Assembly (NCBI GenBank): GCA_031416075.1
Contig: JANOSY010000056.1
Coordinates: 9,872 to 73,871, forward strand
Reading direction: 5' to 3'
DNA length: 64,000 nt
Source of the DNA: Candidatus Tenderia sp.
Lineage (GTDB): Bacteria > Pseudomonadota > Gammaproteobacteria > Tenderiales > Tenderiaceae
Shown here: positions 30,924-64,000 of the stretch, one piece after another
How positions within the stretch are numbered: position 1 is the stretch's first letter
How the letters are laid out: each line of letters begins with the position of its first letter
Program-made: the position numbers and the translations under genes
Notes under the pieces: generated by a model
What the model saw: only the letters and a program-made list of their open reading frames with translations
What the model was told of the DNA's origin: nothing
The model's database searches: none

Positions 30924-31181
30924 TTATTGGTCGGAACTGCCTGCCTGCTCAGGCAGAACAGGGTCGAACAGATCGCCAAATAGGCTATGCAGTACCAGTT
31001 TATGCTCCTCTCTTTTGGTGCTGCCCTTTGTCTCCTCCCACGGGACCATGTACAAAATTTGTGGTGCCTCTTTGTTGTCTTTGATGATGGTGGTATCAAG
31101 CTCCAGCGTATCGTCAGCATGAGTAAGCGAAGAGAATAAAAGGAACATTAATACAACAAGCGTATTGTTTAGTCTGTTCAT
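30924..31181 (-). CDS. Small secreted protein (GltF-like by size and position)
   Basis: 85 aa with a signal peptide ending THA and the segment IKDNKEAPQILYMVPWE. ATGA overlap with the upstream gene. Confidence 0.7.
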   Translation of the reverse strand: MNRLNNTLVVLMFLLFSSLTHADDTLELDTTIIKDNKEAPQILYMVPWEETKGSTKREEHKLVLHSLFGDLFDPVLPEQAGSSDQ

Positions 31182-31774
31182 GGTCTGTTCTTACTGAGTG
31201 TGGATTTAAGTTCTTCCAGCCAATTGGCAGTTGCCACATCTTTATGATCGGTAAGATCAAGGTAACGTTGATAGTGGGGAATGGCCTGTTTTATATCTTG
31301 GAGATAAGTATCATACAGCAGGGCAAGATTGTAATGGGCGATAGCATAGTCATCTTTTTGCATAATTGCCTGGGTATAAAATTTTTCTGCCTGACGAATA
31401 TTTCCTTTTTTTATCTCAATCAAACCGAGCAGGTTAAGCGTCTGCGGAAATGTGGGATCTTTGTCCAGAGCAGTGTTTAGTAGTTTCTCGGACTCCTCCA
31501 CCTTGCCCCGTTTTAACTGCATGATCCCCAGATTGACCCAGACGCCTGTAATGGCGCTATTTTTTTTGGTCAATGACTGGAAAATCTTCTCCGCCTTATC
31601 CGGCTCGTTACTGTTTAGATGGGTAATGGCCTGCTGATAAAGAACACTATCGTCACTCCGGCTGCCATCACTCGACCCAGGCAGCGAATCGTTGCGATTT
31701 TGTGCACTGCAGGCAAATAGCAGTATCAGAGAGCAGGCCAATAGCCATCTAGTGCAATAGGTCAACATAGTCAT
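31178..31774 (-). CDS. TPR lipoprotein (GltE-like by position)
   Basis: Lipobox LFAC and TPR units WVNLGI, LNLLGLI and HYNLALLYD. Confidence 0.85.
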   Translation of the reverse strand: MTMLTYCTRWLLACSLILLFACSAQNRNDSLPGSSDGSRSDDSVLYQQAITHLNSNEPDKAEKIFQSLTKKNSAITGVWVNLGIMQLKRGKVEESEKLLNTALDKDPTFPQTLNLLGLIEIKKGNIRQAEKFYTQAIMQKDDYAIAHYNLALLYDTYLQDIKQAIPHYQRYLDLTDHKDVATANWLEELKSTLSKNRP

Positions 31775-34562
31775 CTACTTTTGCTTCTCTTAAATATCTG
31801 GCGGGGAATAGCAGCTTTAACTGATCATGGCTGCGTTGAATCCATGAGTCAAAAACTCCATCGCTGATATGGGCCATATTGGCTTCGAAAAATTCGATGG
31901 CTTTCTCTTCAAAGGGGAATGCCTGATCTTCGAGCAGCAGGTTGTACTGCTCAAGTTCTTCTTCATTTAAGTTGTTAGGCCGCTCTGACTTTATAAGGGC
32001 ATGGTTAAAGAGCTGGTATATTTCACCAATGCTGTGTTTTGCCTGGGTAGAGGTTTCAGCAACGCCATAGCCAGAGGCTTGGCCAAAAAGTCTGACGGCT
32101 TTTTGCATCGCTGCTTTCTTTTTGTCGAGACTCTCTCCCAGTGGTAGCGTGAGTGATATTGTTTTGTATAAACCAAACTCTTTAATAGCCAGATTGAGCG
32201 CAGCGGTTGAGGTGATGAATTTGGTACGGCTGTTCATGGCATCGCGGGAACCATTTTTGTCCGCATCAAGAATGGCGTGTTGCCATATATCTACGTTAGC
32301 CATCTCCTTTTCAGCTGTGTAGAGGGTGACAAGCTTCTGCATCGCTTCAAGATGTTGGGCGTAAGGCTTCTGGTAGGTAGTTGCAAATGCTTTGTAGGCA
32401 GTAATCGCTTGCGCCGTTTTATTATTTGCCTCATAAAGCTCAGCTGCTTTCCATTGCGCTGCCATTTTGATAGCAGCATCACCACCGGCCAAGGCAATTT
32501 TTTCATACTCCCTGGCGGCGGATATCTCCTGTCCACTCTTCAAATATACGGAAGATAGTTTGATGTTGATCGCGTTGTTAAGTGAATGGTTTGGAAACTG
32601 TGTCTGGAATATTTTTATGTTGCCAATGGCGATATCCCATAGTTCGTTTGTAATCGCCAGATCGATCGCCTCATTTACGGCATCTGGTGCAATGCCCGCG
32701 TCAGGAGCCGCTTTTGATATACGCATTAAGTGCTCAATTGCACTTTGAGTATTACCATTGCTCTTCTCCGACAACCCCTGTTTGTAGATGGATAGTGCTA
32801 GCTGGTTGCCTATCTGGTAGCGGGCTTTATAGGTTGAGCTTGATGACTTTAATATGGATGTATACGTGGTTTCAGCATTGCTGAATTGACCACTTTCGAA
32901 ATAAGAGTGCCCACGTATGGTTTTTATCTCTTCCATTTGCATTGCATCGGCACTGTTATGCACCAGGTTTGTTAATTCAATGGCATTGGCATACTGTTTT
33001 GCTTTAAAGGCAAGTTCAGCGGCATGGGCAATCACCTTGGGCGTTAACTCATCATTAGGGTAAAGCTGCGCATAAGCACGTGAATATTGTAAGTTTCTGT
33101 CCAGGTATGATGATTTTTCCTGATCAGTGCTGGATGATCGGTGTAGCTGGCTGGTGATAAGGATAGTGCTGTAGGCAGCGCGCTTGTTGAGTATGATGTC
33201 ATCGTTGTATGCGGCCTTTTCATAGTGATAAAGGGCCTCTTTGTCACTCTTGTTTTCGGCCAATAACTCGGCATATAAAAAGTGTACGTTATCTTTGCGG
33301 GAATATTGTGAAAAATGGCTAAGGTAGCGTTTATACCACTGGTCAGCGTTTGAAAAATCCTGCTTCTGATGAGTTGATTGATACCTGCTGTGGTAGTTGG
33401 CCATCATCAACAAGGTGTATTCTTTGAGTGAGTTGGCGATGCTCTTCTGTAATGCAGGATTGCTGTCTTCAGTCCAATACGAGCTATCTGGGTTGTAGGC
33501 TGTGTAAAAGAGATCAATCGCATCGTATGTTTTTTGGGTAAAGCCGCTTAATTTCCAACTTTCGATCAGTTTAACCTGTGATTCAGGCACATAAGGTGAT
33601 GAAGGGAAGTGCTCAGAAAAATGGGCCAATGCTCTGGCTGAATCAGAGTAGCGATTCTGTTTTAAATAGATGTCACTGATGCTGCTGTATATATTGTAAA
33701 TATAGCTGAACGCTGGCCTCTCTTTGAAATAAGCGGTTATCTCGTCCAGGTTTTGCATGTACGCAAACGATAGCCCAATGGCCCTGAAGTACTCATTGAA
33801 CAGATCTTTCTCTGTAGAGCTCAGGTTGTCGATGTCTGAGAAGCCGTGGTAAGCAACAGCGTTAATGTAGTCGTCGGCGGCTTCGGCGTAATACTCCAGT
33901 TTCAATCTTGACCAACCACGTTTGAAATAGGATTTCTCAATGAAGCGTTCATTTTTGGGCGTAGAGATCACGTTGGTATAAGCATCATCGGCGGCTATGT
34001 ACTCACCTTTTGAGAAATAGCCTTCGGCAACCCTGAATTGGCTCTCCAAGTAATATTTGGAGCGCGGGTATTTGTTAATGATGGTTGTCAGGGCGGCTAA
34101 TGATGGTTCTATTTTTCCCTGCTGGTCATAAGCATTGGCAAGATTGTATAAAAGCTTGTCATTGCCGCTGGCATTTGGGTATTCCTGTAACGAAGTGGTG
34201 ATTAACGTAATAGTGGTCTCAAGTCTTGCATTGTATGTCTCATCCATGAGTACGGGGCTGTCGCCGGCCAGACTGTTTTTTTCCTGGGCGACACGATTGC
34301 CAAGCTCAAATTCTAATTCGGCAAGACGATTGATGGCGGTTAATCTGGAAATGTCATTTTTTGAGGCGCTGTGCAGATAGTCTGCGTAGGCTTTTCTGAT
34401 GGCGTCGTTGGATGTCTGTATTGATGAGTCACTGTTTTTGCCAATATCGTTATGGACGATGTCAATGTCTGATAGGGTTGCATCTTTGTGTGATGTTGCA
34501 CAAGCAGCCAGACTGATACAGAGCGGAATGATAAGCACTTTATATCTCATACGGTATTTCAC
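31749..34562 (-). CDS. Large TPR lipoprotein (GltD/AgmU-like)
   Basis: Lipobox LAAC, many TPR units, and C-terminal QYNLLLEDQAFPFEEKAIEFFEAN. Confidence 0.85.
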   Translation of the reverse strand: MKYRMRYKVLIIPLCISLAACATSHKDATLSDIDIVHNDIGKNSDSSIQTSNDAIRKAYADYLHSASKNDISRLTAINRLAELEFELGNRVAQEKNSLAGDSPVLMDETYNARLETTITLITTSLQEYPNASGNDKLLYNLANAYDQQGKIEPSLAALTTIINKYPRSKYYLESQFRVAEGYFSKGEYIAADDAYTNVISTPKNERFIEKSYFKRGWSRLKLEYYAEAADDYINAVAYHGFSDIDNLSSTEKDLFNEYFRAIGLSFAYMQNLDEITAYFKERPAFSYIYNIYSSISDIYLKQNRYSDSARALAHFSEHFPSSPYVPESQVKLIESWKLSGFTQKTYDAIDLFYTAYNPDSSYWTEDSNPALQKSIANSLKEYTLLMMANYHSRYQSTHQKQDFSNADQWYKRYLSHFSQYSRKDNVHFLYAELLAENKSDKEALYHYEKAAYNDDIILNKRAAYSTILITSQLHRSSSTDQEKSSYLDRNLQYSRAYAQLYPNDELTPKVIAHAAELAFKAKQYANAIELTNLVHNSADAMQMEEIKTIRGHSYFESGQFSNAETTYTSILKSSSSTYKARYQIGNQLALSIYKQGLSEKSNGNTQSAIEHLMRISKAAPDAGIAPDAVNEAIDLAITNELWDIAIGNIKIFQTQFPNHSLNNAINIKLSSVYLKSGQEISAAREYEKIALAGGDAAIKMAAQWKAAELYEANNKTAQAITAYKAFATTYQKPYAQHLEAMQKLVTLYTAEKEMANVDIWQHAILDADKNGSRDAMNSRTKFITSTAALNLAIKEFGLYKTISLTLPLGESLDKKKAAMQKAVRLFGQASGYGVAETSTQAKHSIGEIYQLFNHALIKSERPNNLNEEELEQYNLLLEDQAFPFEEKAIEFFEANMAHISDGVFDSWIQRSHDQLKLLFPARYLREAKVDDYVDLLH

Positions 34563-35956
34563 TCGGTAAGGCTGCTGTCATAGAGTAATGCAAGGCCGTA
34601 TCTTGATTGAGCTATGTAGCTATTGAGTTGTGTGGCCCGTTCGGTCAGAAACGCCCTGGCGACGTTGATTAACGCATCATTGTAAGCAGCTTCAAGCGGG
34701 TTTAACTGTTGTGTCAATCCAATATCTGTTTGTATTTTGAGTTCTTTAATGTGCAGATAGTTGTCGATGAGCGATTGTGGAAAACGCTGGAGGGTATCCA
34801 TTGGGTATTTGTCTATCATCAATATTTGATTGTCTGTTATTTGAATCGTATTAAGCAGCATGTTGTTTTTTTCTAGCAATGTTTCGATAGCCTGAATCTC
34901 TTGCGTGTAGTGTTCAATTGCGCTGCTGTAGCTGGCCGATGCGGTGAGGCTTTGATCCAGCTTGCTATAGATATAGGGGATTAATAGATAAGATTCTGCA
35001 CTTGGCAGATCATGTTCTTGTTTTTCTTTGAGTATGGTCGCCGCATTCAGGGCTCCCACATAGTTATCCTGGTTGATGGCAGCCAGTGTTATACCGATCA
35101 ATGCTTGATTGGTGTACTGGCTGGTAATGTTTACTTTTCTGAAGGCATCTCGTGCATTTCTATAATAACCTTGGCGCATGAGTGAGTAACCGAGAATAAC
35201 ATTAAAACGATTTTCCAGTTCGCTCAGGCTGCCATTGAGTGGTCGTTTCAGCAGTTCGTTAATGGCGGCGTGAGCATCTGTCCACCAGTCTTGGCGAATG
35301 TAAGCAACGGCAAGGTTTAAAGTGATTTGTGGATGCAGCGTGGATATTGCTGTATTTTTTTCGTAGATCTCAATCGCTTCTCTATGTTTCTTTAACCGTT
35401 GAAGTGCAACGCCATGCATTAAATTGGCGTAATCCGCATCGTTGACGACAAGATCACCAGTAATGCCATCCAGTTGTTCGATGGCTTTTTGCCATTGGTT
35501 TCGCCTCATATAGTGTTTTGCCATGATAAAGCGGGCATTGGAGACGATGGTTTTGTTACTGTCATTCTGAATAGTGGTGAACAACCTGCTGGCAGAGTCC
35601 CACTCATTGTATTTTAAAAGCAGTGCCAGGATGTTGATAACAGCGGGTGAGTCTATATTGCTTTGAATTAGGTTCAGATGTGTGACAATTAAAGTGATGG
35701 CATCAATAGTCTGTTTATTCTGTTGATGTTTCTCTACCGCTTGTATAAGGGGTTGGAAGTTATTATATGGCGTGCTGGTTTGAGTTGATTTTTGTAGGTA
35801 AAACTGTTTTGAAAAGTTTTGATAGAGTTTGTCAAGCTGATCAATGTCGCTGCCGTTTAAGTCCGTTGCTGCTGCCTGACCGATAAGTATGATGCCCAGC
35901 AGGATGGCTCCTGTAGTCTTGGCGAATAGATGCAGATTTGTTCGGTATTGTGGCAT
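34559..35956 (-). CDS. Secreted TPR protein (GltC-like by position)
   Basis: Signal peptide from ATG 35956 ending QAAA, TPR-like helices, and C-terminal QSRYGLALLYD. It overlaps the next gene by 4 bp. Confidence 0.8.
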   Translation of the reverse strand: MPQYRTNLHLFAKTTGAILLGIILIGQAAATDLNGSDIDQLDKLYQNFSKQFYLQKSTQTSTPYNNFQPLIQAVEKHQQNKQTIDAITLIVTHLNLIQSNIDSPAVINILALLLKYNEWDSASRLFTTIQNDSNKTIVSNARFIMAKHYMRRNQWQKAIEQLDGITGDLVVNDADYANLMHGVALQRLKKHREAIEIYEKNTAISTLHPQITLNLAVAYIRQDWWTDAHAAINELLKRPLNGSLSELENRFNVILGYSLMRQGYYRNARDAFRKVNITSQYTNQALIGITLAAINQDNYVGALNAATILKEKQEHDLPSAESYLLIPYIYSKLDQSLTASASYSSAIEHYTQEIQAIETLLEKNNMLLNTIQITDNQILMIDKYPMDTLQRFPQSLIDNYLHIKELKIQTDIGLTQQLNPLEAAYNDALINVARAFLTERATQLNSYIAQSRYGLALLYDSSLTE

Positions 35957-36122
35957 GGTTGGGTATGTTAGATGTGCGCGGCAAATGAGGCGAAAATATA
36001 CCATTTTCGGAGATATTGTGTCTATGCGCCAGGTTCGGTTTGTCGGCGCAGTGGATGATGTTACATCCACTGCTGGGAATTACAATAGGTTGATGTGATG
36101 GGTGTACCGTGAGTTGTGAGTT

Positions 36123-38807
36123 CTATTTTATTTCGTAGAGGAACTCTCCCTCTTCAGTTGTAGTTACATGTATGGTTGAGATGGTTTCCTGCAGCGCCAT
36201 TTTTGATAAACACTCGGTGGCTAATGCTGGCATTAATGTTCGAGTCAGAATGTTTTCAATATTTCGGGCACCTGTGTCAACCTCCTGGCTGCGTGCAACA
36301 ATGTGTAGCAGCACATCGTCATGGTAAGTGAAACGGGCATCGTAATGATTTTTTATCCGTTTTTCTATCCGGGCCATGTTGATTTTGCATATATCCAGTA
36401 GATTATCATCGCTGAGTGGGTAGTAAGGGATGATGGTCGTCCGTCCTAAAAATGCAGGTTTAAAATAATTTAATAGGTGTGGGCGGAAGTTGTCTAGCAG
36501 TGTATCTGGATCGGGCAGCGTTTCGCTTGCGGCACAGATTGCGCGAATATGCTCTTCGGCGGCATTGGATGTCATGATGATAATGGTATTGCGAAAATCA
36601 ATGTCGCGTCCTTCGCCATCTTTTATGGTCCCTTTGTCGAAGAGGTTGTAAAAAATATCCTGCACTCCGGGATGTGCTTTTTCCATCTCATCCAGCAATA
36701 TTACGCTATAGGGTTTTCGCCGTACGGCCTCTGTTAATACGCCACCCTCGCCAAAGCCGACATATCCAGGGGGTGAGCCGAGCAACATTGATATCTTATG
36801 CTCTTCTTTAAATTCTGACATGTTGATGGTGGTGATGTTGTGTTCGCCACCATAAAGCAGATCTGATAGCGCCAATGCAGTTTCGGTTTTACCTACGCCG
36901 CTGGGTCCCACCATAAAAAAGACACCGATAGGTTTGCGGGGGTCGGTGAGGCCGGCGCGGGATGTGCGTATGCTCTGTGCAATAGCATCCAGCGCATGTG
37001 TCTGGCCAATGACACGTTTACCAAGAAGTTCCTTGAGCTTCATAATAGATTGAATTTCATCGGCGACCATCTTTCCAACAGGAATGCCTGTCCAGTTGGC
37101 GACAACCTCGGCAATGGACTGGCTATCAACATTGATCTGGATCATGGGGGTTTCACCCTGTAGCTCAGCCAGTGCCTGTGTGCATTGGTTTAACTCTTTT
37201 TTAATGGTGACGAGTTCACTTTCAGTCAAGGGTGGTGGTGAACTGTTCTGTTTTTTCTGCTCTTCAGTGAGATGGCTGAGTTTAAAGTCCTCTTCGATGG
37301 TTTTCTGAATGGCGTGAATTTGAGCGACCTGTTGTCGCTCTTTTTTCCATTGTGTGAGTTGTTCTTCGAGCCGTATTTCAAGTCTGGATTGCTCTTCTGT
37401 GAGCGCCTGAATTCGTTCATCATGGCCCCCTGTTGTTGCATTTTCGCGCCCCAGAGAGATGATGTTGGCTTTGCATTGAGCTATGCGTCGTTGACTATCT
37501 TCTACAGGCGCAGGTGTTGTGCTTTGGCTTAAGGCCACACGTGCACAGGCGGTATCCAGCAAACTTACCGATTTGTCAGGTAGCTGGCGTGCCGTAATGT
37601 AACGGCTTGATAGGCGCACAGAGGCTACAATGGCATCATCCAAAATTCGGACGCCATGGTGAGTTTGCAACATGTCAGAGATGGCGCGCATCATATCTAT
37701 GGCTTTTTCCTCGCTGGGCTCTTCAATCTTTACAACCTGAAAGCGCCGTGTCAGTGCCGGATCGCGTTCAAAGTATTTTTTATACTCTGCCCAGGTTGTC
37801 GCGGCGATGGTACGCAGTTCACCGCGTGCCAATGCAGGTTTGAGTAAGTTGGCGGCATCGCCTTGTCCCTCTTTGCCACCAGCACCAATGAGGGTGTGGG
37901 CCTCATCTATAAACATGATAATGGGCTGAGGTGATGCCTTTACTTCGGCAATAACAGATTTGAGGCGATTTTCGAATTCGCCTTTGACGCTGGCACCGGC
38001 TTGCAACAGACCAAGATCCAGGCTGCGTACACAGACACCTTTTAACTGATCTGGAACATCACCGGAGGCGATGCGCTGGGCAAAGCCTTCAATGACGGCT
38101 GTTTTACCGACACCTGCTTCGCCAGTGAGGATGGGATTGTTTTGGCGACGACGAATTAATATGTCGATGATCTGACGGATCTCTTCGTCGCGTCCTAGTA
38201 TGGTGTCAGTTTTTCCCTGTTTTGCCTCTAGTGTCATATTGACAGTGAATTTATCGAGGGCGGGTGTCTGGCTAGGGGTACCCGTTGCGCTAGGTTTTGT
38301 ATCACCGTCAAGGGCTGCGTGGCTAAGTGATTCGCTGGTCGAGCCTACAGTTGCGCGAATAACCTCACGCAGAGATTCGGGGGCGATTTTTTTTAACTCT
38401 CCACCGGTGATGGAGGTAGAGCGGCTCAGGCTCTCATCTAACATTAGTGCCCCTAATATGTGGGCAGAGGTGGTTTGTGTGTGACCATACTCTATGGATG
38501 CGAGCATCCATGCTGTTTTTGCCACATCAATAATATTGGTCGACAGTGCTGGTGCGCGGGTATTTCCGGTTTTTATATTGTCCAATTCTCGATTTAATTC
38601 ACGGGTAAAGGTACCTATATTGATATTGAATCGATTTAAAATGGTTAACAGATCGGTGTCAGGTGTCTCTATCAATTTGAGAAGCCAATGTTCTATTTCA
38701 ACATTGTAGTGTGTCCGTGCCATACATAAACCGGCTGCCCCCTCCAGGGCGCTGCGGGTGGTGTGGTTCATTTTGGCGACCAAGGATTTTAAGTCAATGG
38801 TGATCAT
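36123..38807 (-). CDS. tssH: T6SS ClpV ATPase
   Basis: [39 protein letters not shown] and a ClpV-type N-terminus. Confidence 0.96.
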
Positions 38808-38865
38808 TCCGGCTCTCTCTTTCTGAATATATAGGTACGTTTAAACGTTAATATTTGGAATCGTA

Positions 38866-39960
38866 TTACATTAATCGATCAGCAGAAACTGATATTTCCA
38901 TGGTAGCATTTTCTGCATATACACGATCTTTTTTGCTGGCCAGCCAGGTATTCCAGCTTATACACGGTGGGTTGTGGGAGTCCAGTTTGACTTGATATGG
39001 GATGTCCGATTTCCTGATCTGTATTTTAAAATCGTAATCATATTCCATGCCGGCATATAGCCTTACAATCTCATTCATGGCTTTCAGTGCTTGTGTTCCT
39101 GGTGCAAACTCTTGTAATTGGTCTTTTTTAAGGGGGCCAATAACGATGCTGAACTTTCCTTGGGTGAGCCAGCCTTTTTTTCCAATCATGGCGGATTTTC
39201 CCAGGTTGTTATTTTGACCGGGAGAGACTCTTCCATTAGGGAGCCTTGTTCGCACATCATCAATCAGCTCTTGCCATTGGCCGATAAACTCTCTGATGTT
39301 GATGGGGACATTGAAATGGTTTTGCAATATCTGCTTGAGATTGGCGCTGGTTTTAATCTGTTCTGATAGCAGCCCGCTATAGTAGATAAGGGACTCATCC
39401 TCGATATGCAGCCGGTTATTAAGGCGTGTAGTACCCATCCCTATGAGTGATAGAAAAACTCTTGTGAAATGATCGCTTTTTTTATCAACGCCTGTTTTGC
39501 TATGTTCATAGTTCAGGGCAAGACTGTATTTTGTACTGGCTTGGTAAAATAGTGAGATGGTTCTGTGGTTAAAGAGATCAAAAAATTCTTTTAATGCCTC
39601 ATCTTTTATTTTGAGTCGTTGAAGAATTGTTTCGGTATAGTGGTGTGGTAGCACACCTGAACTGCCCGTTAATCCCATAAAGTTGACATCAACACCCCAG
39701 TGTTTTTCTCCAGCGATATTAACGATGTCGTCGACAGATTCAATCTCTGTGGCAGGAAAGCTGAGTGATTGATTGACTGAGAAGCGTATGGACTCTGCAG
39801 TAGGTGGTGTGAAAAGCCCAACAGGTTTGGATGCAGGGTTTTTATTGAGCGTGGCGGAGCGCTGAATTAGTCTGACAGTTTGTATAAATGTATATTTATA
39901 CGGAGCGCCAGCTAGGTCCTGAATTATAGAAATATCTTTTCGCCGGCGCTGGGAGGGCAT
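38866..39960 (-). CDS. tssG: T6SS baseplate TssG
   Basis: NFMGLTGSSGVLPHHYTE, FDLFNHR and IVIGPL. Confidence 0.94.
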   Translation of the reverse strand: MPSQRRRKDISIIQDLAGAPYKYTFIQTVRLIQRSATLNKNPASKPVGLFTPPTAESIRFSVNQSLSFPATEIESVDDIVNIAGEKHWGVDVNFMGLTGSSGVLPHHYTETILQRLKIKDEALKEFFDLFNHRTISLFYQASTKYSLALNYEHSKTGVDKKSDHFTRVFLSLIGMGTTRLNNRLHIEDESLIYYSGLLSEQIKTSANLKQILQNHFNVPINIREFIGQWQELIDDVRTRLPNGRVSPGQNNNLGKSAMIGKKGWLTQGKFSIVIGPLKKDQLQEFAPGTQALKAMNEIVRLYAGMEYDYDFKIQIRKSDIPYQVKLDSHNPPCISWNTWLASKKDRVYAENATMEISVSADRLM

Positions 39961-41753: not shown

Positions 41754-42243
41754 GACCAAGTTCTGTCACGCTAACACTTCGTGTGACAGACTCCAGAACA
41801 GAGTCGAAAACGACGATTTCTGGCGAAGGGTCGGCATAGAGTACCGCATCAATTCTAAAGCGTAACGCCCGGTCAGTTTTATCTTTATTATCATGGTGTG
41901 TCACTTTTACCGATTTGAAGCGCGGTTCGTATGTTCTAATAACTTTTTCCATGTGACGGATAAACTCTTTTTTCTGATTGGCATCAATAATGTTGATTGT
42001 AGCAAGGTCTGGCAGGCCGTAGTTGAGTAACGAGTGTTCTAACTGCCCATGTTCTGGTGGTGGGCTGACGATTCGATATCGGGTATTGAGAAGTTGCTCG
42101 AGATCGCGGCGCACACTTTGCCGCAGTGTTTTCAGGTTTTGATACCTGTCGGGTTCTGACTCCAGTTTGTTGTGGGGCGCATCATCCAGCAGTCTGTCAA
42201 ATATCGACGGGCGGAGTTTTTTTGATCTATCAATATGGGCCAT
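41746..42243 (-). CDS. tssE: T6SS baseplate TssE (gp25-like)
   Basis: PSIFDRL, RRDLEQLLNTR, NYGLPD and YEPRF. Confidence 0.94.
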   Translation of the reverse strand: MAHIDRSKKLRPSIFDRLLDDAPHNKLESEPDRYQNLKTLRQSVRRDLEQLLNTRYRIVSPPPEHGQLEHSLLNYGLPDLATINIIDANQKKEFIRHMEKVIRTYEPRFKSVKVTHHDNKDKTDRALRFRIDAVLYADPSPEIVVFDSVLESVTRSVSVTELGHG

Positions 42244-42245
42244 TT

Positions 42246-43730: not shown

Positions 43731-43769
43731 GGGGTATGGCCAATGTTGTAGGTGGATTGCTGCAAAGAA

Positions 43770-43791
43770 GTGCGGGGAGAACTCCCCGCAC
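43770..43791 (-). terminator. Perfect hairpin between tssC1 and tssC2 (partial terminator or mRNA stabiliser)
   Basis: GTGCGGGGAG-aa-CTCCCCGCAC, followed by TTCTTT on the minus strand. Confidence 0.65.
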
Positions 43792-43796
43792 GAACG

Positions 43797-49199: not shown

Positions 49200-49243
49200 G
49201 CGGCCGGGGCGTAACGAGTGCAATCTAGTTGGGATGCAGATAT

Positions 49244-49744: not shown

Positions 49745-49880
49745 GCCATTGTGTTTAATGGGAACTGAAAAAATTATCAGGTAAGAAGAGCTGAGGTATG
49801 TGTTACTGGATTTATGGTAGATCATTTGTACCAGAAAAATATTTCAGACATATCGATGTGTAAAATATAGGCGCATTTAA

Positions 49881-51215: not shown

Positions 51216-51276
51216 TGTTGATAAAAAGTATAGGCCAGGGTTTTGGACAGAGAACCATTCGTAAAGGGAGGCGCTG

Positions 51277-52158: not shown

Positions 52159-52204
52159 CGATGGCTCCCATGGCTGGCACACATGATCTTTGTTGGATAA
52201 TCAG

Positions 52205-55750: not shown

Positions 55751-56494
55751 ATGTCAACATGCTACCGTCCTGGGCTATATGGAAAACTGCCAGCGTATGG
55801 TGATTTTGTTGTCCGTAATTTGACGCCTAGCTTTGTCAATGAGTGGGACGTATGGATGCAACAGTTCATGAATGGAACCCAGGAGAGAATTGGCACAGAT
55901 TGGCTGGATATCTACCTAACCAGTCCATTATGGCGATTTGTACTATCCTCTGGAGTGATTGATGAAAATGTCTGGGCAGGTGTTGTGATGCCCAGTGTTG
56001 ATAAGGTAGGGCGTTATTTCCCTTTCTCCATTGTTTTAAAACTGCCAGCGAATATCAACCCACTCGATTTTTTGTCAATAAAATCAGCATGGTTTTCTGA
56101 GATGGAGACGTTGGCGCTCTCGGCATTGCAGGGAGAGATTGTGCTGGATGAGCTGGCGCAGCGTCTGGAAAACAGTCCGTTAACGCTGGATCTATCATAC
56201 AGACGGGTGATGCATAAAAAAGGCATGCGGGACCTGTATGCTGAAATTGACGTTGAGGAGCCGCTGCCTTTTTCAGTCTATCCCCAGTTCCTGGATTACT
56301 GCTTATCTGAAACCTTTAGCAGCTACAGCGTATGGACAACAGAAGGTTCTGAAAGAGTTGCCCCGTGTCTCTTCACCACTCAGCATCTACCTACAATGGA
56401 AAAAATGTCGGCAATGATAGATGGTCAGTGGCATCGATGGGGCTGCCATCAGCCATACGCCTTGGCGAGAGATTCAAATCTGGATTCTAAATAA
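55751..56494 (+). CDS. tagF: T6SS regulator TagF (ImpM)
   Basis: YGKLPAYGDF, YLTSPLWRF and PSVDKVGRYFP. Confidence 0.93.
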   Translation: MSTCYRPGLYGKLPAYGDFVVRNLTPSFVNEWDVWMQQFMNGTQERIGTDWLDIYLTSPLWRFVLSSGVIDENVWAGVVMPSVDKVGRYFPFSIVLKLPANINPLDFLSIKSAWFSEMETLALSALQGEIVLDELAQRLENSPLTLDLSYRRVMHKKGMRDLYAEIDVEEPLPFSVYPQFLDYCLSETFSSYSVWTTEGSERVAPCLFTTQHLPTMEKMSAMIDGQWHRWGCHQPYALARDSNLDSK

Positions 56495-57276
56495 TGAGTG
56501 ATATAACAATCAGACGTCCAACTGCCTGGAGTGCTGCCGGTGGCAGTGATGTTGGTACAGTCAGGAAAATTAATGAAGATGCAATTGTTTTGCGAAATGA
56601 TGTGAACCTATGGGCAATCGCTGATGGCATGGGTGGACATGAAGCCGGTGATGTGGCCAGTAATATGGTTGTTAAATCACTGGAGCTATTGGATCTAAGT
56701 GCACAGCTTGATGAGGCGATCAATACAGTAAAAGAGTGCATTCTTGATGTGAATCAACGCATCATGGAATATGCTGAAATCATGCTGGAAGGGCGTACAT
56801 TTGGAACCACTATCGTTAGCTTTGTTATTAAAGGCCAACGTGGCGCATGTGTATGGGCGGGAGATTCCCGTTTGTATCGGTACCGTAATAATCAGATTGA
56901 AGCCCTTTCCCATGATCACAGCCGGGTGGCTGAACTTCTTAAAAAAGGGATGCTTGACTCTGAGAGTGCAGCAACGCACCCAGACTCTAATATCATTACA
57001 CGCGCAGTGGGCGTGAGTGAGGGGTTGAATCTGGATGTCAACATTTTTCCAGTTCAGATGGGAGACACATTTTTACTCTGTAGTGACGGACTCTATAACT
57101 CGGTCACGGAAGAGGATATGTTGCAACAGCTTGGCAGTGGCTCATCTCAGGACGCAGTTCAGGGATTGATAACAACGGCGTTGAATAATAAAGCTAACGA
57201 CAATGTGTCTGTCATTGTGGTGAAAAGTGCGTTTCACTCAGCTGCTGATGAAGAGCATGAACAGGTGGTTATATGA
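56494..57276 (+). CDS. pppA: PP2C Ser/Thr phosphatase (PppA-like)
   Basis: RKINED, ADGMGGH, GDSR, CSDGL and DNVS. Confidence 0.92.
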   Translation: MSDITIRRPTAWSAAGGSDVGTVRKINEDAIVLRNDVNLWAIADGMGGHEAGDVASNMVVKSLELLDLSAQLDEAINTVKECILDVNQRIMEYAEIMLEGRTFGTTIVSFVIKGQRGACVWAGDSRLYRYRNNQIEALSHDHSRVAELLKKGMLDSESAATHPDSNIITRAVGVSEGLNLDVNIFPVQMGDTFLLCSDGLYNSVTEEDMLQQLGSGSSQDAVQGLITTALNNKANDNVSVIVVKSAFHSAADEEHEQVVI

Positions 57277-57392
57277 GTGGTACCAGACTCACGATACCCG
57301 TTAGTAAAAGCATTTTTACTGTTCAAAAAAAAGGTTGATATTGCAGATGTATCTCCATCGCCTTTTTAAAACCGTAAAAGAGCAAAGATAAG

Positions 57393-60056
57393 ATGTGTCC
57401 AGAAAACCGGGAGGATAAAACTGAGCCGAATTTTAAAAAAACAGCTCAAACGGGTAAACATGTTAGTTCAAAAATTGATACAGATATTGCCCCCTCTGCA
57501 TCGGATAGAACAGTCATTGCTGGTCATAAAATTGACAGCAATAGCCAAGAAGCCCTTCGGCCAACTCCCACCGAGTTAAAAAAGAACCTCGACGACTTTA
57601 AGGAGAGTGCCGAATTTTCTAATGATGACGCCACTCGGTTTCAGCCTCCTGAAGAATCGCTTGACCTTGATGCTACTCGACTGGTTTCTGATGCGACGTA
57701 TGTGAAACCAACTCCTCCAGCAATCACGCCGCCGTTTGAACTTGATGCGGAACCTGAAAGCTTTATTTTGAAACAACGGTTTTTAATGGAAAAAGTGCTG
57801 GGTGTGGGCGGCATGGGGGTTGTTTACAGAGCTAAAGACAGGCTGAAAGTGGAGGCGAAGGATAAAGATCCCTATGTTGCCATTAAAGTATTGAGTGATG
57901 AGTTTAAAACGCATCCTGAAGCATTTATCTCGCTGCAGCGTGAGTCAAGAAAAACACAGCGTCTTTCCCATACAAATATCGTAAAGGTATTTGACTTTGA
58001 TAAAGATGGTGAGCTTTTTTTTATGACGATGGAGTATATGGAGGGAAAACCTCTTGATCGGTTGATAAGGCAGTATAGCGTCACTGGGTTGCCGCTGGAG
58101 GATGTCTGGACCATCATCGATGGCATGTGTTCAGCGCTCAGTTATGCCCATATTGAGAAAATAGTACATGCTGATTTTAAGCCGGGAAATATTTTTGTCA
58201 CTACAAGTGGCATGGCGAAAATATTTGATTTTGGTATTGCCCGCGCTGTGACCAATATTGATAAAAATGAGAGTGGCACGGCTGACCGCACAATATTTGA
58301 TGCTGGAAATTTAGGCGCATTAACACCCGCATACGCAAGTTATGAGATGTTAAAGGGGGAAGAGCCTGACGTTAGAGATGACATATATGCACTTGGCTGT
58401 ATAACCTATGAACTGCTCTCAGGAAAACATCCGTTTGATAAAATCCCTGCGGATGAAGCCAAAAACAGACGGTTGAAGCCCAAGAGAATACCAAAAATAA
58501 CCAAACGTCAGTGGCGTGCGATAGAGAAAGCATTGGCGTTTGATCGTAAAGATAGAATTGAGACGGTAGATCTCTTTTATCATGAGTTGACCGAAAAATC
58601 CAAATCACGATGGCTGCTGTCGATATTTTTTATCCTTGTCGTGGCAGGTATTACGGCACTGTTTTTTAATATAAAAAAAGAAGCAGCGGTTGATCAATCC
58701 CCAATTATTTCTGAAAATGATATTAGAAATGAGATAGAGCTTCAGGTAAGGGCAGACTTCCATAAAGAGGAACTCGAAAAACTAATTTTGAACCCCACCT
58801 TTTCTATCATTTGGGAGGAGAATATCTGGAATCAATATAGCGGCATGAGTGAGTTATTGCCTCAGGGGGATGATTGGCTGGCCTCTGTTAAAGAGAAAAT
58901 CTATACGTTATATATAAAAAAGATACAAGACGAAATGGGTGCTGCTAATCATGAACGTGCCAGTGGCCTGGTTAAAAACAGTTATCGATTTGCCGGTGAT
59001 ACAGCCGTATTAAAAGAGCTGGAGATAAAAATTGTCGATGCCCTTAGGCGGTTGCCCAAGACAGAGCAGGCTGCAACCCTTGTTAAACCCAGACCCGTTG
59101 CAGAGCCAGTTGTTATAGTCAAGTCAGAAGTTGAGCCGCGCTCAACCATTGATGAATATAATCTGGCACTCTCAAATGCTCACCGGCAGCTGGAGTGCCG
59201 CAGTCGATTGAACATGCGAGATTTTGCTGTCGCCATCGATAAAATAAAATCACTGGATATCAATAAATACCAGTCCATTAAAGAGGAGCTGGTAACGTCT
59301 TTAACCTCATGTATTACCGAGGAAGCCAAACGTTTTCCTGAGCGTGCGCTGGAGTCAAAAAAATCTGCATTGCGTATTTTTGATGATCATGCACTTATAG
59401 CTGCGATTTCCATAGTTTCGCGGGACGCTTGTGATGACTCAATCGCGGGGTTGGGTGGTAGTGGCAAACGCGCAGCCTGCCGGGACACCATTAAAGGCGT
59501 GGGCGATGGCCCCGAGTTGGTTGTTATACCCACAGGAAAAAACATCAAGAGTTTTGCAATTGGCAAATACGAAGTATCAACTGCAGAGTTCCGGTTCTAC
59601 TGTGATCAGACAGGACGATGTGTAACGTCGGCATCGGATAGTGGTCTGCCCATTACCGGGCAACCGTTAAGTGCAGTGCGTGATTACCTTAAATGGCTGA
59701 CCGAAAAAACAGGCAATAAGTATCGCTTGCCAACCAAAGATGAATGGGTCCATGCCGCCAGTGCAACGGCAATCATGCAGGACCCGAATCGTAACTGCCA
59801 GTTTAGTAGCCGGGGCATTCAAAAAGGGGATGGTCTGATAAGAACCACCATCGGTAGAAATAATGCGTGGGGACTGGTTAATTACCTCGGGAATGTTCAG
59901 GAATGGGTGTACGGTAAAAGTGGTCAGATTGTGGCAGTGGGCGGCTCTTATCTCAACTCCATGGATGAGTGTCAGATCACCACGTTGCAAGAGCACTCAG
60001 GGCAGGCAGATGAGGTGACCGGATTCCGTGTTGTACGGGAAGTCACTGCCAATTAA
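57393..60056 (+). CDS. ppkA: Membrane Ser/Thr kinase with C-terminal FGE-sulfatase-like domain (PpkA-like)
   Basis: GVGGMGVVY, VAIK, HADFKPGN, DFG and a TM helix. C-terminal YRLPTKDEW, GNVQEW and GFRVVRE. Confidence 0.9.
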   Translation: MCPENREDKTEPNFKKTAQTGKHVSSKIDTDIAPSASDRTVIAGHKIDSNSQEALRPTPTELKKNLDDFKESAEFSNDDATRFQPPEESLDLDATRLVSDATYVKPTPPAITPPFELDAEPESFILKQRFLMEKVLGVGGMGVVYRAKDRLKVEAKDKDPYVAIKVLSDEFKTHPEAFISLQRESRKTQRLSHTNIVKVFDFDKDGELFFMTMEYMEGKPLDRLIRQYSVTGLPLEDVWTIIDGMCSALSYAHIEKIVHADFKPGNIFVTTSGMAKIFDFGIARAVTNIDKNESGTADRTIFDAGNLGALTPAYASYEMLKGEEPDVRDDIYALGCITYELLSGKHPFDKIPADEAKNRRLKPKRIPKITKRQWRAIEKALAFDRKDRIETVDLFYHELTEKSKSRWLLSIFFILVVAGITALFFNIKKEAAVDQSPIISENDIRNEIELQVRADFHKEELEKLILNPTFSIIWEENIWNQYSGMSELLPQGDDWLASVKEKIYTLYIKKIQDEMGAANHERASGLVKNSYRFAGDTAVLKELEIKIVDALRRLPKTEQAATLVKPRPVAEPVVIVKSEVEPRSTIDEYNLALSNAHRQLECRSRLNMRDFAVAIDKIKSLDINKYQSIKEELVTSLTSCITEEAKRFPERALESKKSALRIFDDHALIAAISIVSRDACDDSIAGLGGSGKRAACRDTIKGVGDGPELVVIPTGKNIKSFAIGKYEVSTAEFRFYCDQTGRCVTSASDSGLPITGQPLSAVRDYLKWLTEKTGNKYRLPTKDEWVHAASATAIMQDPNRNCQFSSRGIQKGDGLIRTTIGRNNAWGLVNYLGNVQEWVYGKSGQIVAVGGSYLNSMDECQITTLQEHSGQADEVTGFRVVREVTAN

Positions 60057-60341: not shown

Positions 60342-60959
60342 ATGGAAATTGTAAAGTTCTTCCAATCCGGCGGCGCTTTTATGTATCCAATACTGATTGT
60401 ATTTGCGATTGGTTTGGCAATAGCGATAGAGCGTTATCTCTATCTAACTAAAACCCAACGCCAAACAACCAAAATCTGGGATCAGCTGGTGCCAATGTTA
60501 AAGGCAGAAGACTTTCCTCGCGCCGCAAAATTAACAGAGTCCCTGAATACGCCGCTTACTGTGATATTGAACTATGGCTTTAGCCGTCACAGTACAAATA
60601 GCCGTCGCGAAACAATTGAAGCAGCGATGGAAGAGGGCATGATGGATGTTATGCCAGAGCTGGAACAGCGCACCCACTATCTGGCCACCTATGCCAACGT
60701 TGCCACCCTGCTTGGACTGTTGGGTACCATTGTTGGACTCATTCAGGCCTTTACCGCCGTTGCATCGGCAGACCCGGCAGAAAAAGCGGACCTGCTCTCG
60801 GCCAGCATCTCAGTCGCGATGAATACCACCGCATTTGGTCTGATTGCCGCCATACCGTTGCTGCTCATACACTCGTATCTTGTGACAAAAACGGTACGCT
60901 TGGTGGCTAATCTTGAAAATGCTGCTGTTAAAAGCATCAACCTGATGGTTGAAGAGTAA
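60342..60959 (+). CDS. MotA/TolQ/ExbB proton-channel protein (AglR-like)
   Basis: GGAFMYPI, TLLGLLGTIVGLIQAF and ISVAMNTTAFGL. Confidence 0.93.
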   Translation: MEIVKFFQSGGAFMYPILIVFAIGLAIAIERYLYLTKTQRQTTKIWDQLVPMLKAEDFPRAAKLTESLNTPLTVILNYGFSRHSTNSRRETIEAAMEEGMMDVMPELEQRTHYLATYANVATLLGLLGTIVGLIQAFTAVASADPAEKADLLSASISVAMNTTAFGLIAAIPLLLIHSYLVTKTVRLVANLENAAVKSINLMVEE

Positions 60960-60968: not shown

Positions 60969-61478
60969 ATGAAGCGGTTTAGTAAAAATATGGCAAGAGA
61001 GGCTGAAGAGCTCAACATCACCGCGTTCATGAACTTAATGGTGATACTGGTCCCTTTTCTACTGATCACCGCCGTCTTCTCTCGTATATCCATACTCGAA
61101 TTAAACCTGCCCGCGCTCAATGCCAACGATCAGGCCCAGGAGCAGGTCAAGTTACAGCTGGAGCTGGTGCTGCGCGAAAACAGTTTTGATCTGCAGGATA
61201 AAACCATTGGCCTGATCAAACGCTTTGAACGCAGCAACAATGAAACGCGCTGGAATCTGTTTAGCAAACTAATGGTCGAGATAAAAACCCGCTTTCCTGA
61301 TGAAAGGGCAATCACGTTGCTGCTGGAGCCAGGCATTGACTACAAAACATTAATTACCGCCATGGACCATGTGCGTAGTGCCGATGTTGTGCAGGTGACC
61401 AGTGTAGAGACCATAGAGCTGTTTCCCGATATCTCCATCGGTGATGCCTCCGTGATGATTGAAGCGATAGAGAAGTAG
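60969..61478 (+). CDS. ExbD/TolR-family protein 1 (AglQ-like)
   Basis: ELNITAFMNLMVILVPFLL, LNLP, Y..L...MD and LFPDISI. Confidence 0.88.
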   Translation: MKRFSKNMAREAEELNITAFMNLMVILVPFLLITAVFSRISILELNLPALNANDQAQEQVKLQLELVLRENSFDLQDKTIGLIKRFERSNNETRWNLFSKLMVEIKTRFPDERAITLLLEPGIDYKTLITAMDHVRSADVVQVTSVETIELFPDISIGDASVMIEAIEK

Positions 61479-61487: not shown

Positions 61488-61997
61488 ATGAATAAGCTGA
61501 AAATATCAAATCGTGCACGCCGAATGGAGGGGTTAAAAAAACTCCATAAAGGCGCAGGTCTTAATCTGGTGTCACTAATGGACATCTTCACAATTCTGGT
61601 GTTTTTTCTACTGGTCAGCTCATCCAGCGTACAACAGCCACCCAGCAAAAAAGACCTTACCTTACCCACCACCGTTGCCCAAAAAGCACCTAAAGAGACG
61701 CTGGTTATCACCATCACCAAAGAGAGTATTCTGGTTCAAGGTGTTAAGGTTGCCACTATACGAGCAGTGTTGGCAGAAAAGGGGGCGCTAATAGCAGCGC
61801 TTGAAAAAGAGTTAAATATCCACGCCGCCAACGCGCCAACACTCAGTGAAAATGGTGACATTGGGCGCTCAGTCACCATCATGGGTGATGAAAACTTACC
61901 CTACGAACTGCTAAGAAAAATTTTAGCCACATGCAGACAAGTCAATTACACACATGTTGCCTTCACCGCCATGCAAAAGGGCAAAGGTAAAGTGTAA
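61488..61997 (+). CDS. ExbD/TolR-family protein 2 (AglS-like)
   Basis: LNLVSLMDIFTILVFFLL, LTLP and GDENLPYELLRKILAT. Confidence 0.9.
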   Translation: MNKLKISNRARRMEGLKKLHKGAGLNLVSLMDIFTILVFFLLVSSSSVQQPPSKKDLTLPTTVAQKAPKETLVITITKESILVQGVKVATIRAVLAEKGALIAALEKELNIHAANAPTLSENGDIGRSVTIMGDENLPYELLRKILATCRQVNYTHVAFTAMQKGKGKV

Positions 61998-63031
61998 TGA
62001 GTGCATTAACGTATGAAAACCAGGCGTTACAATGGCGGCCCGGTAGCAGCAGTGATCGCAAATTTTCCACCATAATCGCACTGGTCATTACCTTTGCGCT
62101 GATATTGAGCCTGCTGTTCTCTATCATCAAAGTGCCGCAGGAACCTCGCCAGTTGCGTGCAGCGGTGCCCGAGCGCATTGCAAAGTTTATTTTAGAAAAA
62201 GAAAAACCAAAACCTCAGCCCAAGCTTGACGTTGCACCGCCACCTAAACCCATGCCCAAACCGGAAATCAAGGTAGAGCCGCCGCCAGAACTAGAGCCGA
62301 TATTAAAATCGGATGATCCAGAGCCTGTCCCGCAGCCCAAGCCGCAAAAACCAGAACGTACAGAAGTGCTCACAGACGCACAACAGAAAGCACGCGCCAC
62401 AGCGCAGAAAAGTGGTTTGTTAGCACTTGGCAACGAATTGTCAGACTTAATGGATACCTCCGACGTCAGCAACATGGCCCGCGCAAAAATATCCACCACT
62501 ACAGGCTCGTCAACCGCCGTAGCAGGTGTCAATACCAGCGTACTTTCTGCTGCTGCTGCAGGAGCGGGCGGTGGTTCGTCCGTCAACATCAAACCCAGTG
62601 ACTATTCAACCGCCGTTGTTTCCACGCAGCTCAATCAGCAGGAGCGGGTAAAAATTGCTTCAGCCCTTGCACCTGAAAAAAATGAGACCACAGCCAATGG
62701 TAAAGCCGCTGACTCTAAAAAACAGAAAACAACGGCAGGCAACGGAGTCCGGTTTGAAGAGGATATCTACTACGTTATTGATCAAAACAAAGGCAAGTTG
62801 CACGCAGTATATCGTCAGGCACGACGTGTTAATCCCGGCCTAAAAGGAAAAATTGTTTTTGATATCACCATCCTTGCCTCGGGCCAGGTCTCAGCGGTTG
62901 TCATCAGGTCCAGCGAACTGGATGATGCAGCACTACAGGAAAGATTGATCTCCCGGCTAAAGAGTTTTGATTTTGGTGTGCGTGAAGGTGGTGAAATGAC
63001 AGTCACCTACCCAATCGAATTCCTACCGTAA
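61997..63031 (+). CDS. TonB/TolA-like energy transducer with AgmX/PglI (GltG)-type C-terminus
   Basis: One N-terminal TM, a Pro/Lys/Glu-rich spacer, and C-terminal YRQARRVNPGLKGKI...SSEL...YPIEF. Confidence 0.85.
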   Translation: MSALTYENQALQWRPGSSSDRKFSTIIALVITFALILSLLFSIIKVPQEPRQLRAAVPERIAKFILEKEKPKPQPKLDVAPPPKPMPKPEIKVEPPPELEPILKSDDPEPVPQPKPQKPERTEVLTDAQQKARATAQKSGLLALGNELSDLMDTSDVSNMARAKISTTTGSSTAVAGVNTSVLSAAAAGAGGGSSVNIKPSDYSTAVVSTQLNQQERVKIASALAPEKNETTANGKAADSKKQKTTAGNGVRFEEDIYYVIDQNKGKLHAVYRQARRVNPGLKGKIVFDITILASGQVSAVVIRSSELDDAALQERLISRLKSFDFGVREGGEMTVTYPIEFLP

Positions 63032-63066
63032 CATGGTGCCCGGCTTATCGAACTGTTGTGGCTTAA

Positions 63067-63200
63067 TGAATCTGTACACCTGAATGGGATAAAATAACCC
63101 ATAAAAATACAAGGTGTATGTCATGACTAAAATGAGACCAACTTACTCGGCTGAATTCCAACATGAAGGTGCAAGCCTGGTGCTAGACGAAGCAGCCTGA
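63067..63200 (+). mobile_element. IS3-family left-end remnant (putative IRL plus about 22 codons of OrfA)
   Basis: TG-initiated putative end, AAGGTG RBS, and ATG 63123 encoding MTKMRPTYSAEFQHEGASLVLD (OrfA-like YSxEF...xLVL). It stops at 63200. Confidence 0.65.
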
Positions 63201-64000
63201 CCGGTGGTAGTGGCACCAATATCTGGAGCATCACGGCGACCAATGCGGGTACGGTAGGTGGGTTGAGCTTTGCTGGATTTAACCGCTTGGTGGGCGGCAG
63301 TGGTCAGGACACCTTCCGTTTGCATAACACCGTTGATTTCAGCGGCAGCATTGATGGCGCGGGTGGGAGCGATACCGTGGTGGGTGGTGATCGTGCTAAT
63401 ACCTGGGTGATTGATGGGGAAGGCAGTGGCACTGTTACTGGATTGGCCAATGGTTATGGTTTTAGCCAGATCGAAAACCTGACCGGTAATGCCGGTGATG
63501 ACAGTTTTCTGTTCACCTCTGCCAACACCAGCATTACGGGCCTGATTGATGGTGCGGGCCATGTTGTAGAAGATAGTGTTGATCTGAGAAATGCGGGCGA
63601 TAAATCCATCGTCATTGGTCAGGGGCTGCTGAATGTTGAGCGTATTACTGCCAACGGCTCCAGCACCTTAACGGGTGGCAGTGGCACAAACAGTTGGCTG
63701 GTGACGGGTATTGATGCAGGCACTGTAGGGGGTTTGAATTTTGCCGGCTTTAACAGGCTGGTTGGCGGTGATGGCCAGGATACCTTCCGGCTGCATAATA
63801 CGATCGATTTTGCCGGTAGCATTGCCGGGGGTGCGGGCAGTGACGTGGTGGTGGGTGGCAATCGGTTTAACAGCTGGAACATCAGCGCTGCCAACGGTGG
63901 CAGTGTGACGGGGTTGCGTGATGGCTTTACCGGGGTTGAGGCGCTGGTGGGTAATGGTGGCCAGGACATTTTTAATCTGCACGATACCACCGATTTTGTC
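63191..64000 (+). pseudogene. 5'-truncated repetitive beta-solenoid adhesin/hemagglutinin-like frame (runs off the window)
   Basis: 270 stop-free codons: SSLTGGSGTNIWSIT...FNRLVGGSGQDTF...IENLTGNAGDDSF. There is an in-frame TGA at 63164 and no ATG before the repeats. Confidence 0.8.

Follow-up and report, generated by a model that had tools for sequence, protein, structure and literature searches.

A 64,000-nucleotide stretch of a Candidatus Tenderia sp. genome (hereafter the window: positions 9872-73871 of contig C56, ending where the contig ends, in a genome of 3.49 Mb and 95 contigs that we label G000) carries at positions 30924-63031 a complete type VI secretion system (T6SS) core with two TssC genes plus eight extra envelope genes, and it is the relation between these two components that we describe here. 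Judged by their sequences, the eight extra genes form one set of the Agl-Glt type, divided such that each arm of the divergent T6SS runs on into one half of it. This split, T6SS-flanking form is a distinct clade that has been inherited together with this T6SS lineage. We consider it very probable that the eight products make up one complex and that the linkage to the T6SS is conserved. A functional coupling of the module to the T6SS/PpkA pathway seems to us rather probable, and the specific mechanism considered below, in which the module gives an input to PpkA or positions the apparatus, is offered tentatively and at less than even confidence.

A preliminary description of the window had reported that both divergent T6SS arms continue co-directionally into envelope genes, and open reading frame (ORF) listing together with Pfam scans recovered every gene it named in its place. 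The features, with protein lengths in amino acids (aa), are as follows.

30924-31181, minus strand: sm85, an 85-aa secreted peptide (signal peptide read from the sequence), last gene of the tetratricopeptide repeat (TPR) half
31178-31774, minus strand: 198-aa TPR lipoprotein in the GltE-like position, with lipobox LFAC and TPR_1 and TPR_2 matches
31749-34562, minus strand: TPR937, a 937-aa TPR lipoprotein in the GltD-like position, with lipobox LAAC and TPR matches
34559-36070, minus strand: TPR503, a 503-aa periplasmic TPR protein in the GltC-like position, with TPR matches
36123-47072, minus strand: whole T6SS arm tssA-tssB-tssC-tssC-tssE-tssF-tssG-clpV (Pfam), with its genes given singly in the lines that follow
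36123-38807, minus strand: clpV/tssH (Pfam)
38866-39960, minus strand: tssG (Pfam)
39924-41759, minus strand: tssF (Pfam)
41746-42243, minus strand: tssE (Pfam)
42246-43730, minus strand: second tssC (Pfam), 41% identical to the first
43797-45284, minus strand: first tssC (Pfam)
45285-45812, minus strand: tssB (Pfam)
45948-47072, minus strand: tssA (Pfam)
47697-60056, plus strand: T6SS arm fha-tssJ-tssK-tssL-tssM-tagF-pppA-ppkA (Pfam)
47697-49199, plus strand: fha (Pfam)
57393-60056, plus strand: ppkA (Pfam and sequence), with kinase domain, transmembrane segment and periplasmic FGE-sulfatase-like domain
60342-60959, plus strand: ExbB/TolQ/AglR-like stator subunit (PF01618, 99.8 bits)
60969-61478, plus strand: ExbD/TolR-like protein 1 (PF02472), in which Asn replaces the transmembrane Asp
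61488-61997, plus strand: ExbD/TolR-like protein 2 (PF02472), in which the transmembrane Asp is kept
61997-63031, plus strand: GltG-like TonB-type protein of 344 aa, with N-terminal transmembrane helix, Pro/Lys-rich linker and C-terminal TonB-type C-terminal domain (TonB-CTD) fold
63263-64000, plus strand: frame of an RTX-like repeat fragment (the adhesin of the preliminary description), whose repeat unit begins at 63191 and which runs off the contig end

The evidence that the two halves belong together comes first from the same genome, where contig C58 holds an eight-gene paralogue that is contiguous and on one strand (TPR481-TPR937-TPR210-small93-ExbB221-ExbD165-ExbD166-TonB346) and whose protein sizes are nearly those of the window set (503, 937, 198, 85, 205, 169, 169 and 344 aa). 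The same contiguous eight-gene order was found in other genomes of the family and the class, the contiguous cores nearest to the window's being those of genomes G357 and G142 (ExbB 67% and 66% identical, TPR937 36% and 33%). According to the main text of Luciano 2011 (PMC3169522), the gammaproteobacterial core comprises aglR, aglQ, aglS, gltC, gltD, gltE and gltG plus one extra gene in one region, its function is unknown, and the extra gene is without Myxococcales homologue; the main text of Wartel 2013 (PMC3858216) describes the core complex as a possible "basal transport machinery". Compared with the Group B definition, the window holds one TolQ/ExbB-like and two TolR/ExbD-like genes (PF01618 and two PF02472), a GltG-type TonB-like membrane protein recognized by NF033768 and by architecture, and three TPR proteins with the extra small gene. 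The single clustered region of that definition is seen in the C58 paralogue, G357 and G142; in the window the two halves are on opposite strands, separated by 24 kb in which the T6SS lies. The preliminary assignment of both halves to one Agl-Glt-type set is thus borne out by the C58 paralogue and by the TonB-like protein, which passes the AgmX/PglI model. Of the parts list that it had drawn up, the stator, the two ExbD-like proteins, the TonB-like protein and the TPR set stand, and the equation of the small protein with GltF finds no support, since sm85 corresponds to the extra gene that Luciano 2011 places outside the Myxococcales set. The genome holds three paralogues of the 937-aa protein, and a third TPR module (623, 931, 209 and 101 aa; C31:113700-119300, locus L032) has no motor genes alongside and a PAPS reductase gene next to it, so that the halves can separate without a T6SS too.

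Evaluating the motor half, we found that the TonB-like protein passes NF033768, the NCBIfam model for the AgmX/PglI C-terminal domain, with 69-72 bits against a cut-off of 40, as do in this genome only the window and C58 proteins and no protein in any of 14 control genomes. The model of its residues 253-344 reached a predicted local distance difference test score (pLDDT) of ~90, and the best 17 PDB matches listed were all TonB-family C-terminal domains (TonB, HasB, FusB), while a profile search of the protein against PDB sequences returned nothing significant (best TonB match E = 0.18) and Pfam TonB_C stayed below cut-off. The two ExbD paralogues are differentiated, with Asn in 7/7 first copies and Asp in 7/7 second copies, the free-standing C58 core included (alignment A1). 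Equivalog models were far below cut-off for ExbB (45.7 vs 206 bits), ExbD (25-27 vs 153-216), TolQ (71.8 vs 221), full-length GltG (43.9 vs 650) and GltJ, as was the GltE equivalog for the 198-aa lipoprotein (32.5 bits, cut-off 225), and because of these shortfalls the window set cannot be counted as a set of Myxococcus orthologues, nor as a common TonB or Tol system. Public annotation names these products TPR proteins or "putative component of TonB system".

The TPR half is assigned one-to-one to GltC, GltD and GltE by size and order only. TPR937 has a YbgF/CpoB-like stretch at residues 138-229 (66 bits), and a YbgF-like TPR stretch occurs in TPR503 too; the probable start of the latter, from comparison with orthologue starts in genome G001, is Met39 (35956), after which a signal peptide follows. 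The small peptide sm85 is without a Pfam or NCBIfam match, is highly conserved across 47 aligned copies, and gave an AlphaFold model with no fold (pLDDT 62.8). A short stretch straight after the lipid-anchor Cys is common to all GltD-like lipoproteins, and the mature start of sm85 resembles it. TonB-type C-terminal domains bind an extended peptide in TonB systems, and the stretch after the GltD-like anchor is a possible candidate docking strand for such a domain. A complex prediction with TPR937 residues 22-100, small protein residues 23-85 and the C-domain of the TonB-like protein (250-344) scored 0.31, the mark being 0.32, a value that tells in neither direction on binding.

Turning to the T6SS itself, all 13 T6SSi core genes were found, with tssA-C, E-H and J-M in the window and hcp and vgrG, of which none lies within the window, on contig C92 of the same genome. 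The regulatory genes ppkA, pppA, fha and tagF are all present in the cluster. Within each half of the extra set the genes overlap or lie 9 nucleotides (nt) apart.

To place this layout in a wider sample, we surveyed synteny around two-TssC systems, as the preliminary description had proposed, and the split arrangement proved not to be unique to this genome, recurring in three other gammaproteobacterial families. The layout is identical in G003 (same genus, 97%) and in G123 (another family); in G346 an insert of 6.6 kb separates clpV from the first TPR gene, and in G334 it is spread over two contigs, with the clpV-TPR half on one and the fha...ppkA-motor half on the other. In a class sample of 401 genomes, whose tallies include G311 (unpublished) and G263 (limited), on which no conclusion here depends, a TssC match occurred in 80 and a second TssC of ≥62% identity in five (G000, G003, G123, G334 and G346), all five of which have the module. 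Three more distant two-TssC clusters that we examined, those of G203, G313 and G326, are without the module, and their hcp-vgrG genes follow clpV or are found at another place. When metagenomes were scanned with aligned 937-aa proteins, at least 50 further loci emerged, at 38-46% identity. Among those listed, 37 were assessable (at least 1.5 kb visible upstream of TPR503), 7 had too little upstream sequence and 6 were without the first TPR gene; the TPR half is preceded by clpV in 29 of the 37, directly in 26 and with an insert of 2.3-5 kb in 3. Motor genes follow the small gene in none of the 22 listed loci that have at least 2 kb there, and vgrG-module genes do so in 11.

We next turned to phylogeny and composition. 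A quick-search tree built from 25 GltD-like proteins separates the copies linked to a T6SS, as a clade of their own, from the paralogues of free-standing cores (100 in the Shimodaira-Hasegawa-like approximate likelihood ratio test, SH-aLRT; stem length 1.23). Across 20 loci, TPR937 distances correlate with ClpV distances at r = 0.91 and with TssF distances at r = 0.96, with 0/2000 permutations as high, and ClpV tracks TssF at r = 0.94; the loci are those of 55 sources that passed the filters (each of the three proteins covered to ≥90% and free of stops), which excluded G123 and G334, whose genes straddle locus pieces. This co-divergence shows co-inheritance, not function. The G+C content is 0.44-0.48 in the block 30924-63031, compared with 0.528 for the genome, 0.561 for a Bat-like operon before the block, 0.556 for the C58 core and 0.547 for the repeat after the TonB-like gene, so that both halves share the compositional signature of the T6SS and the unit ends at the stop codon of the TonB-like gene. 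A simple insertion of a T6SS into a contiguous operon was considered and rejected, because, seen against the contiguous form, the TPR half has been turned round as well.

The tightest link within the unit is that of ppkA to the motor half. The exbB gene follows ppkA in 7/7 genomes with this motor type (G000, G003, G001, G123, G334, G346 and G156), ExbB being 72-100% identical among T6SS-linked copies as against 57-68% for other cores, a comparison in which G311 and G263 are again counted. Genome G156 is particularly informative here: on its contig C88 (L177, positions 1-11169) ppkA-exbB-exbD-exbD-tonB and the first TPR gene point away from each other and no T6SS core separates them, which is the window's unit minus fha...pppA and tssA...clpV. 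The rest of the TPR half lies on another contig (C114, L183), the gene after the TonB-like one encodes a HEAT-repeat protein of the vgrG module, and the only T6SS found in that genome is of a different, single-TssC type.

Taken as a whole, positions 30924-63031 would be best explained as one horizontally acquired, evolutionarily conserved unit, in which a two-TssC T6SS under the control of PpkA, PppA, Fha and TagF has each arm ending in half of a dedicated core paralogue. The ExbB-like and the two ExbD-like proteins, one of which keeps the proton-binding Asp and the other has Asn, would form a proton-driven stator that energises the TonB-like protein; this rod may reach the TPR scaffold at the outer membrane, where its C-domain would meet either sm85 or the TPR proteins that carry a lipid anchor. 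The trans-envelope device would then act on the T6SS, most likely as the module that supplies input or positioning to the PpkA-Fha threonine-phosphorylation switch, deciding when and where the membrane complex assembles, a role that falls to TagQRST or TssW in other T6SSs. We favour such a role because ppkA is the constant neighbour, because fha, pppA and tagF are present with no room for tagQRST, and because TagQRST and TssW provide a precedent. No free ORF of at least 70 aa is left in the cluster for tagQRST, for which a genome-wide search was not made. Trans-envelope accessory modules upstream of PpkA are described for TagQRST and TssW, and TssW of Acidovorax citrulli, as reported in PMC12607579, contacts periplasmic parts of PpkA, TssM and TssJ. 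A bolder version would make of the Glt-type core a trans-envelope sensor and mover driven by protons, one that tells PpkA where the outer membrane has been touched or damaged and maybe drags the membrane complex there; this version strikes us as unlikely though worth stating.

Several observations weigh against tying the module to the T6SS in this way, and most of them would fit an independent envelope machine (e.g. Tol-Pal-like or cargo-moving) that travels on the same mobile island and has no role in secretion. The window proteins have the sizes of the free-standing cores, so no T6SS-specific domain has been gained. G001, a member of the same genus, has its TPR half behind pgm and at a distance from clpV. 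In G012 (95% complete, 300 contigs) there is a TPR half of this clade, and no TssC, PpkA or matching motor was found, while in G156 the module persists with no such T6SS core next to it. Eight of the 37 assessable metagenome loci listed have no clpV upstream, of which one has a convergent T6SS arm on the other side and one has vgrG downstream. The C31 module shows a TPR half without an adjacent motor. Gaps at the junctions are sizeable, with 52-167 nt between clpV and TPR503 and 285 nt between ppkA and exbB, the latter widening to 327-463 nt in other families, where a small extra ORF is present (87, 76 and 85 aa; L103:1587-1850, L123:12497-12727 and L096:10108-10365 in G123, G334 and G346) that has no counterpart in the window's 285-nt spacer or in G001. 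Conservation of the intergenic DNA does not extend past the genus, an alignment of the ppkA-exbB spacers showing no motif in common there, and so each half may be transcribed from a promoter of its own; one promoter-like site was seen at 36024-35995, the counts of promoter sites being within shuffle range, and a scan found no terminator on the coding strand in either arm-half junction. The co-divergence is no functional proof either, because linked genes are expected to co-diverge. Further, the homology to Myxococcus Glt proteins is drawn here indirectly, from a domain model, the parts list and a paper, and a profile search aimed at GltD-named proteins returned near relatives throughout its best 120 matches, none of them named Glt.

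Against an independent passenger stands the persistence of the arrangement. Inverted halves kept at both 3' arm ends in at least 4 families and with clpV in 29/37 metagenome loci listed are hard to obtain by chance, the halves are never re-joined (0/22 loci listed), the clade is its own and long-stemmed, the module is present in 5/5 T6SSs of this lineage in the sample, and ppkA stays with the motor even without a T6SS core. We therefore regard a role-free passenger as improbable, if the most serious of the alternatives.

Less probable still is that the module is a structural or energising part of the T6SS, in which the TolR-like, TonB-like and TPR lipoproteins anchor the membrane complex or move it laterally, replacing TagL-type anchors and independent of PpkA. 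In line with it, TssL of the window has by Pfam only the DotU domain, without a peptidoglycan-binding extension, the ORF listing and Pfam scans revealed no TagL/TagN-like gene in the T6SS cluster, and Glt and Nfs relatives move outer-membrane cargo, as the main text of Wartel 2013 (PMC3858216) has it. G156, however, keeps ppkA, motor and TPR half without the T6SS core, which argues against a purely structural part and indicates that the module can persist without the core, and the sister two-TssC clusters of G203 and G313, judged by gene spacing, are also without the TssL extension.

The preliminary description had counted the adhesin-like frame as part of the system, such that the machine would display or move the adhesin and aim the T6SS at adhesin-mediated contacts, and this we now think very unlikely. 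An RTX-like repeat frame does follow the TonB-like gene here, and the junction is real, being supported by contigs of three runs, among them short contigs of two further runs that bridge 63044-63310 and 63074-63298; an assembly chimera at the repeat junction was on this account rejected. The frame, however, starts inside a repeat unit, with in-frame stops just upstream and no N-terminal region, it differs in G+C content, such a frame follows the TonB-like gene in 0/6 other genomes, and G003 (97% identical) diverges from the first base past the stop codon. The adhesin-like frame is outside the conserved unit. There is a loose association of giant exoprotein genes with this T6SS type, which would speak for such a model: G003 has a TPS-domain protein 4.7 kb downstream, a repeat protein stands before tpsB-hcp-vgrG in L126 and L147, and a giant repeat protein precedes tpsB-hcp-vgrG on C92 of the present genome.

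An ordinary TonB-ExbBD nutrient-uptake system with accessory TPR proteins, to which the automatic annotation names and the TonB-CTD fold might point, is hardly credible, for the ORF listing revealed no TonB-dependent receptor gene in the unit, the ExbB, ExbD and TolQ equivalogs and Pfam TonB_C fall below cut-off where the AgmX/PglI domain passes, and the two ExbD paralogues are differentiated.

Around the unit we made a number of further observations. The hcp-vgrG module of C92 (50895-71255, L174) comprises a giant repeat protein (DUF5649 repeats, open at the contig end), a DUF6795 lipoprotein, a class-3 lipase, a ShlB/FhaC-type TpsB transporter, hcp, vgrG, DUF6484, DUF2169, a HEAT protein, an unknown gene and a Tle1-like phospholipase-domain protein, and its repeat end could join the window's end. 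Genes of this module adjoin the TPR half in G123, G346 and the 11 metagenome loci mentioned above. Paralogous giant TPS- or RTX-like exoprotein loci lie on C22, C57, C90, C92 and at C56:135-2559 of G000, where repeats break the assembly, and C57 matches the region following the TonB-like gene in G003. In G334 (contig C14, L100) the T6SS arm stops after the second tssC and other genes follow, several of them with paralogues elsewhere in G000; some we take, from their sequence, to be putative cbb3-type oxidase genes. Fragments of the first tssC of G334 are on two small contigs, by rearrangement or mis-assembly. Within the window, a MoxR-type AAA ATPase gene (22959-24038) heads a plus-strand run to 30898 that ends in a VWA and TPR protein and BatD; this Bat-like operon (22959-30898) converges on the small gene and is outside the acquired block. 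Positions 1-22000 hold ordinary genes, namely those for phosphoglucose isomerase, a PAS-GGDEF-EAL protein, pyruvate dehydrogenase E1/E2/E3, argininosuccinate synthase, a PAS histidine kinase and a PhoX-like phosphatase.

Both components of the unit are already known, and what appears new, in that we did not find it in the literature searched, is their conserved fusion into one unit. No T6SS-Glt or T6SS-ExbB/TPR link was found there, although the supplementary loci of Luciano 2011 (Figure S1, Tables S2-S3) might show a T6SS neighbour; "type VI" and "T6SS" have no occurrence in the main text of the two core-complex papers (PMC3169522 and PMC3858216), and ExbB, TolQ, TonB, tetratricopeptide and proton have none in a 2026 review of T6SS accessory factors (PMC13584744). 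The Agl-Glt core has been known in gammaproteobacteria since 2011 without a function, and a T6SS- and kinase-linked clade of it offers a concrete, testable phenotype. The choice of time and place by T6SSs, in turn, is explained by few accessory modules (TagQRST, TslA/TagM1, TssW), none of them a proton-motive-force motor, and the layout described here hints at a new way of controlling or placing a T6SS. Were the sensor and mover reading true, contractile injection systems would gain their first motor-driven targeting device, and the ancestral core behind the gliding and spore-coat machines of Myxococcus its first function. The module is common: besides the metagenome loci, at least 120 separate clusters of proteins share 42-55% identity with the window protein, and two closer clusters share 69% and 97%. 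In a single-protein search the closest public records were metagenome-assembled genomes (a Gammaproteobacteria bacterium at 97% and an uncultured Chromatiaceae bacterium at 69%). Cultured Aliikangiella species are among the source names of the matched proteins, so that the module may be testable at the bench.

Comparing the window set to known systems, we see in Tol-Pal and TonB-ExbBD the same stator families, the TonB-CTD fold and a YbgF-like TPR stretch, whereas the window set has no TolB, Pal or receptor gene, has two differentiated ExbD paralogues and leaves the respective equivalogs below cut-off. The TagQRST-PpkA-PppA-Fha pathway of the Pseudomonas aeruginosa H1-T6SS is likewise a trans-envelope module encoded with ppkA, pppA and fha, consisting of an outer-membrane lipoprotein, a periplasmic protein and an inner-membrane complex, and it decides the time and place of T6SS assembly. 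The likeness is one of functional analogy only, since the proteins are unrelated: TagST is an ABC-type complex instead of a proton channel, and the pathway lacks a TonB-like rod as well as a TPR set. TssW-PpkA-Fha of Acidovorax citrulli (PMC12607579) and TslA/TagM1 (PMC13584744) are described as outer-membrane-anchored, contacting periplasmic parts of PpkA, TssM and TssJ and setting T6SS position, and unlike the window set they are single proteins without a motor. The Agl-Glt and Agl-Nfs machines of Myxococcus xanthus similarly couple a TolQR-type proton motor via the TonB-like GltG to periplasmic and outer-membrane TPR proteins; the window set is without the GltA, B, H and K barrels, GltF, GltI, GltJ and the AglZ and MglA partners, and there is no evidence of motility. 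Closest of all is the gammaproteobacterial Agl-Glt core, which has the same parts list (one TolQ-like, two TolR-like, a TonB-like and three TPR proteins with a small gene) and occupies one clustered region, whereas the window set is split into inverted halves, forms its own clade and has ppkA always before the motor.

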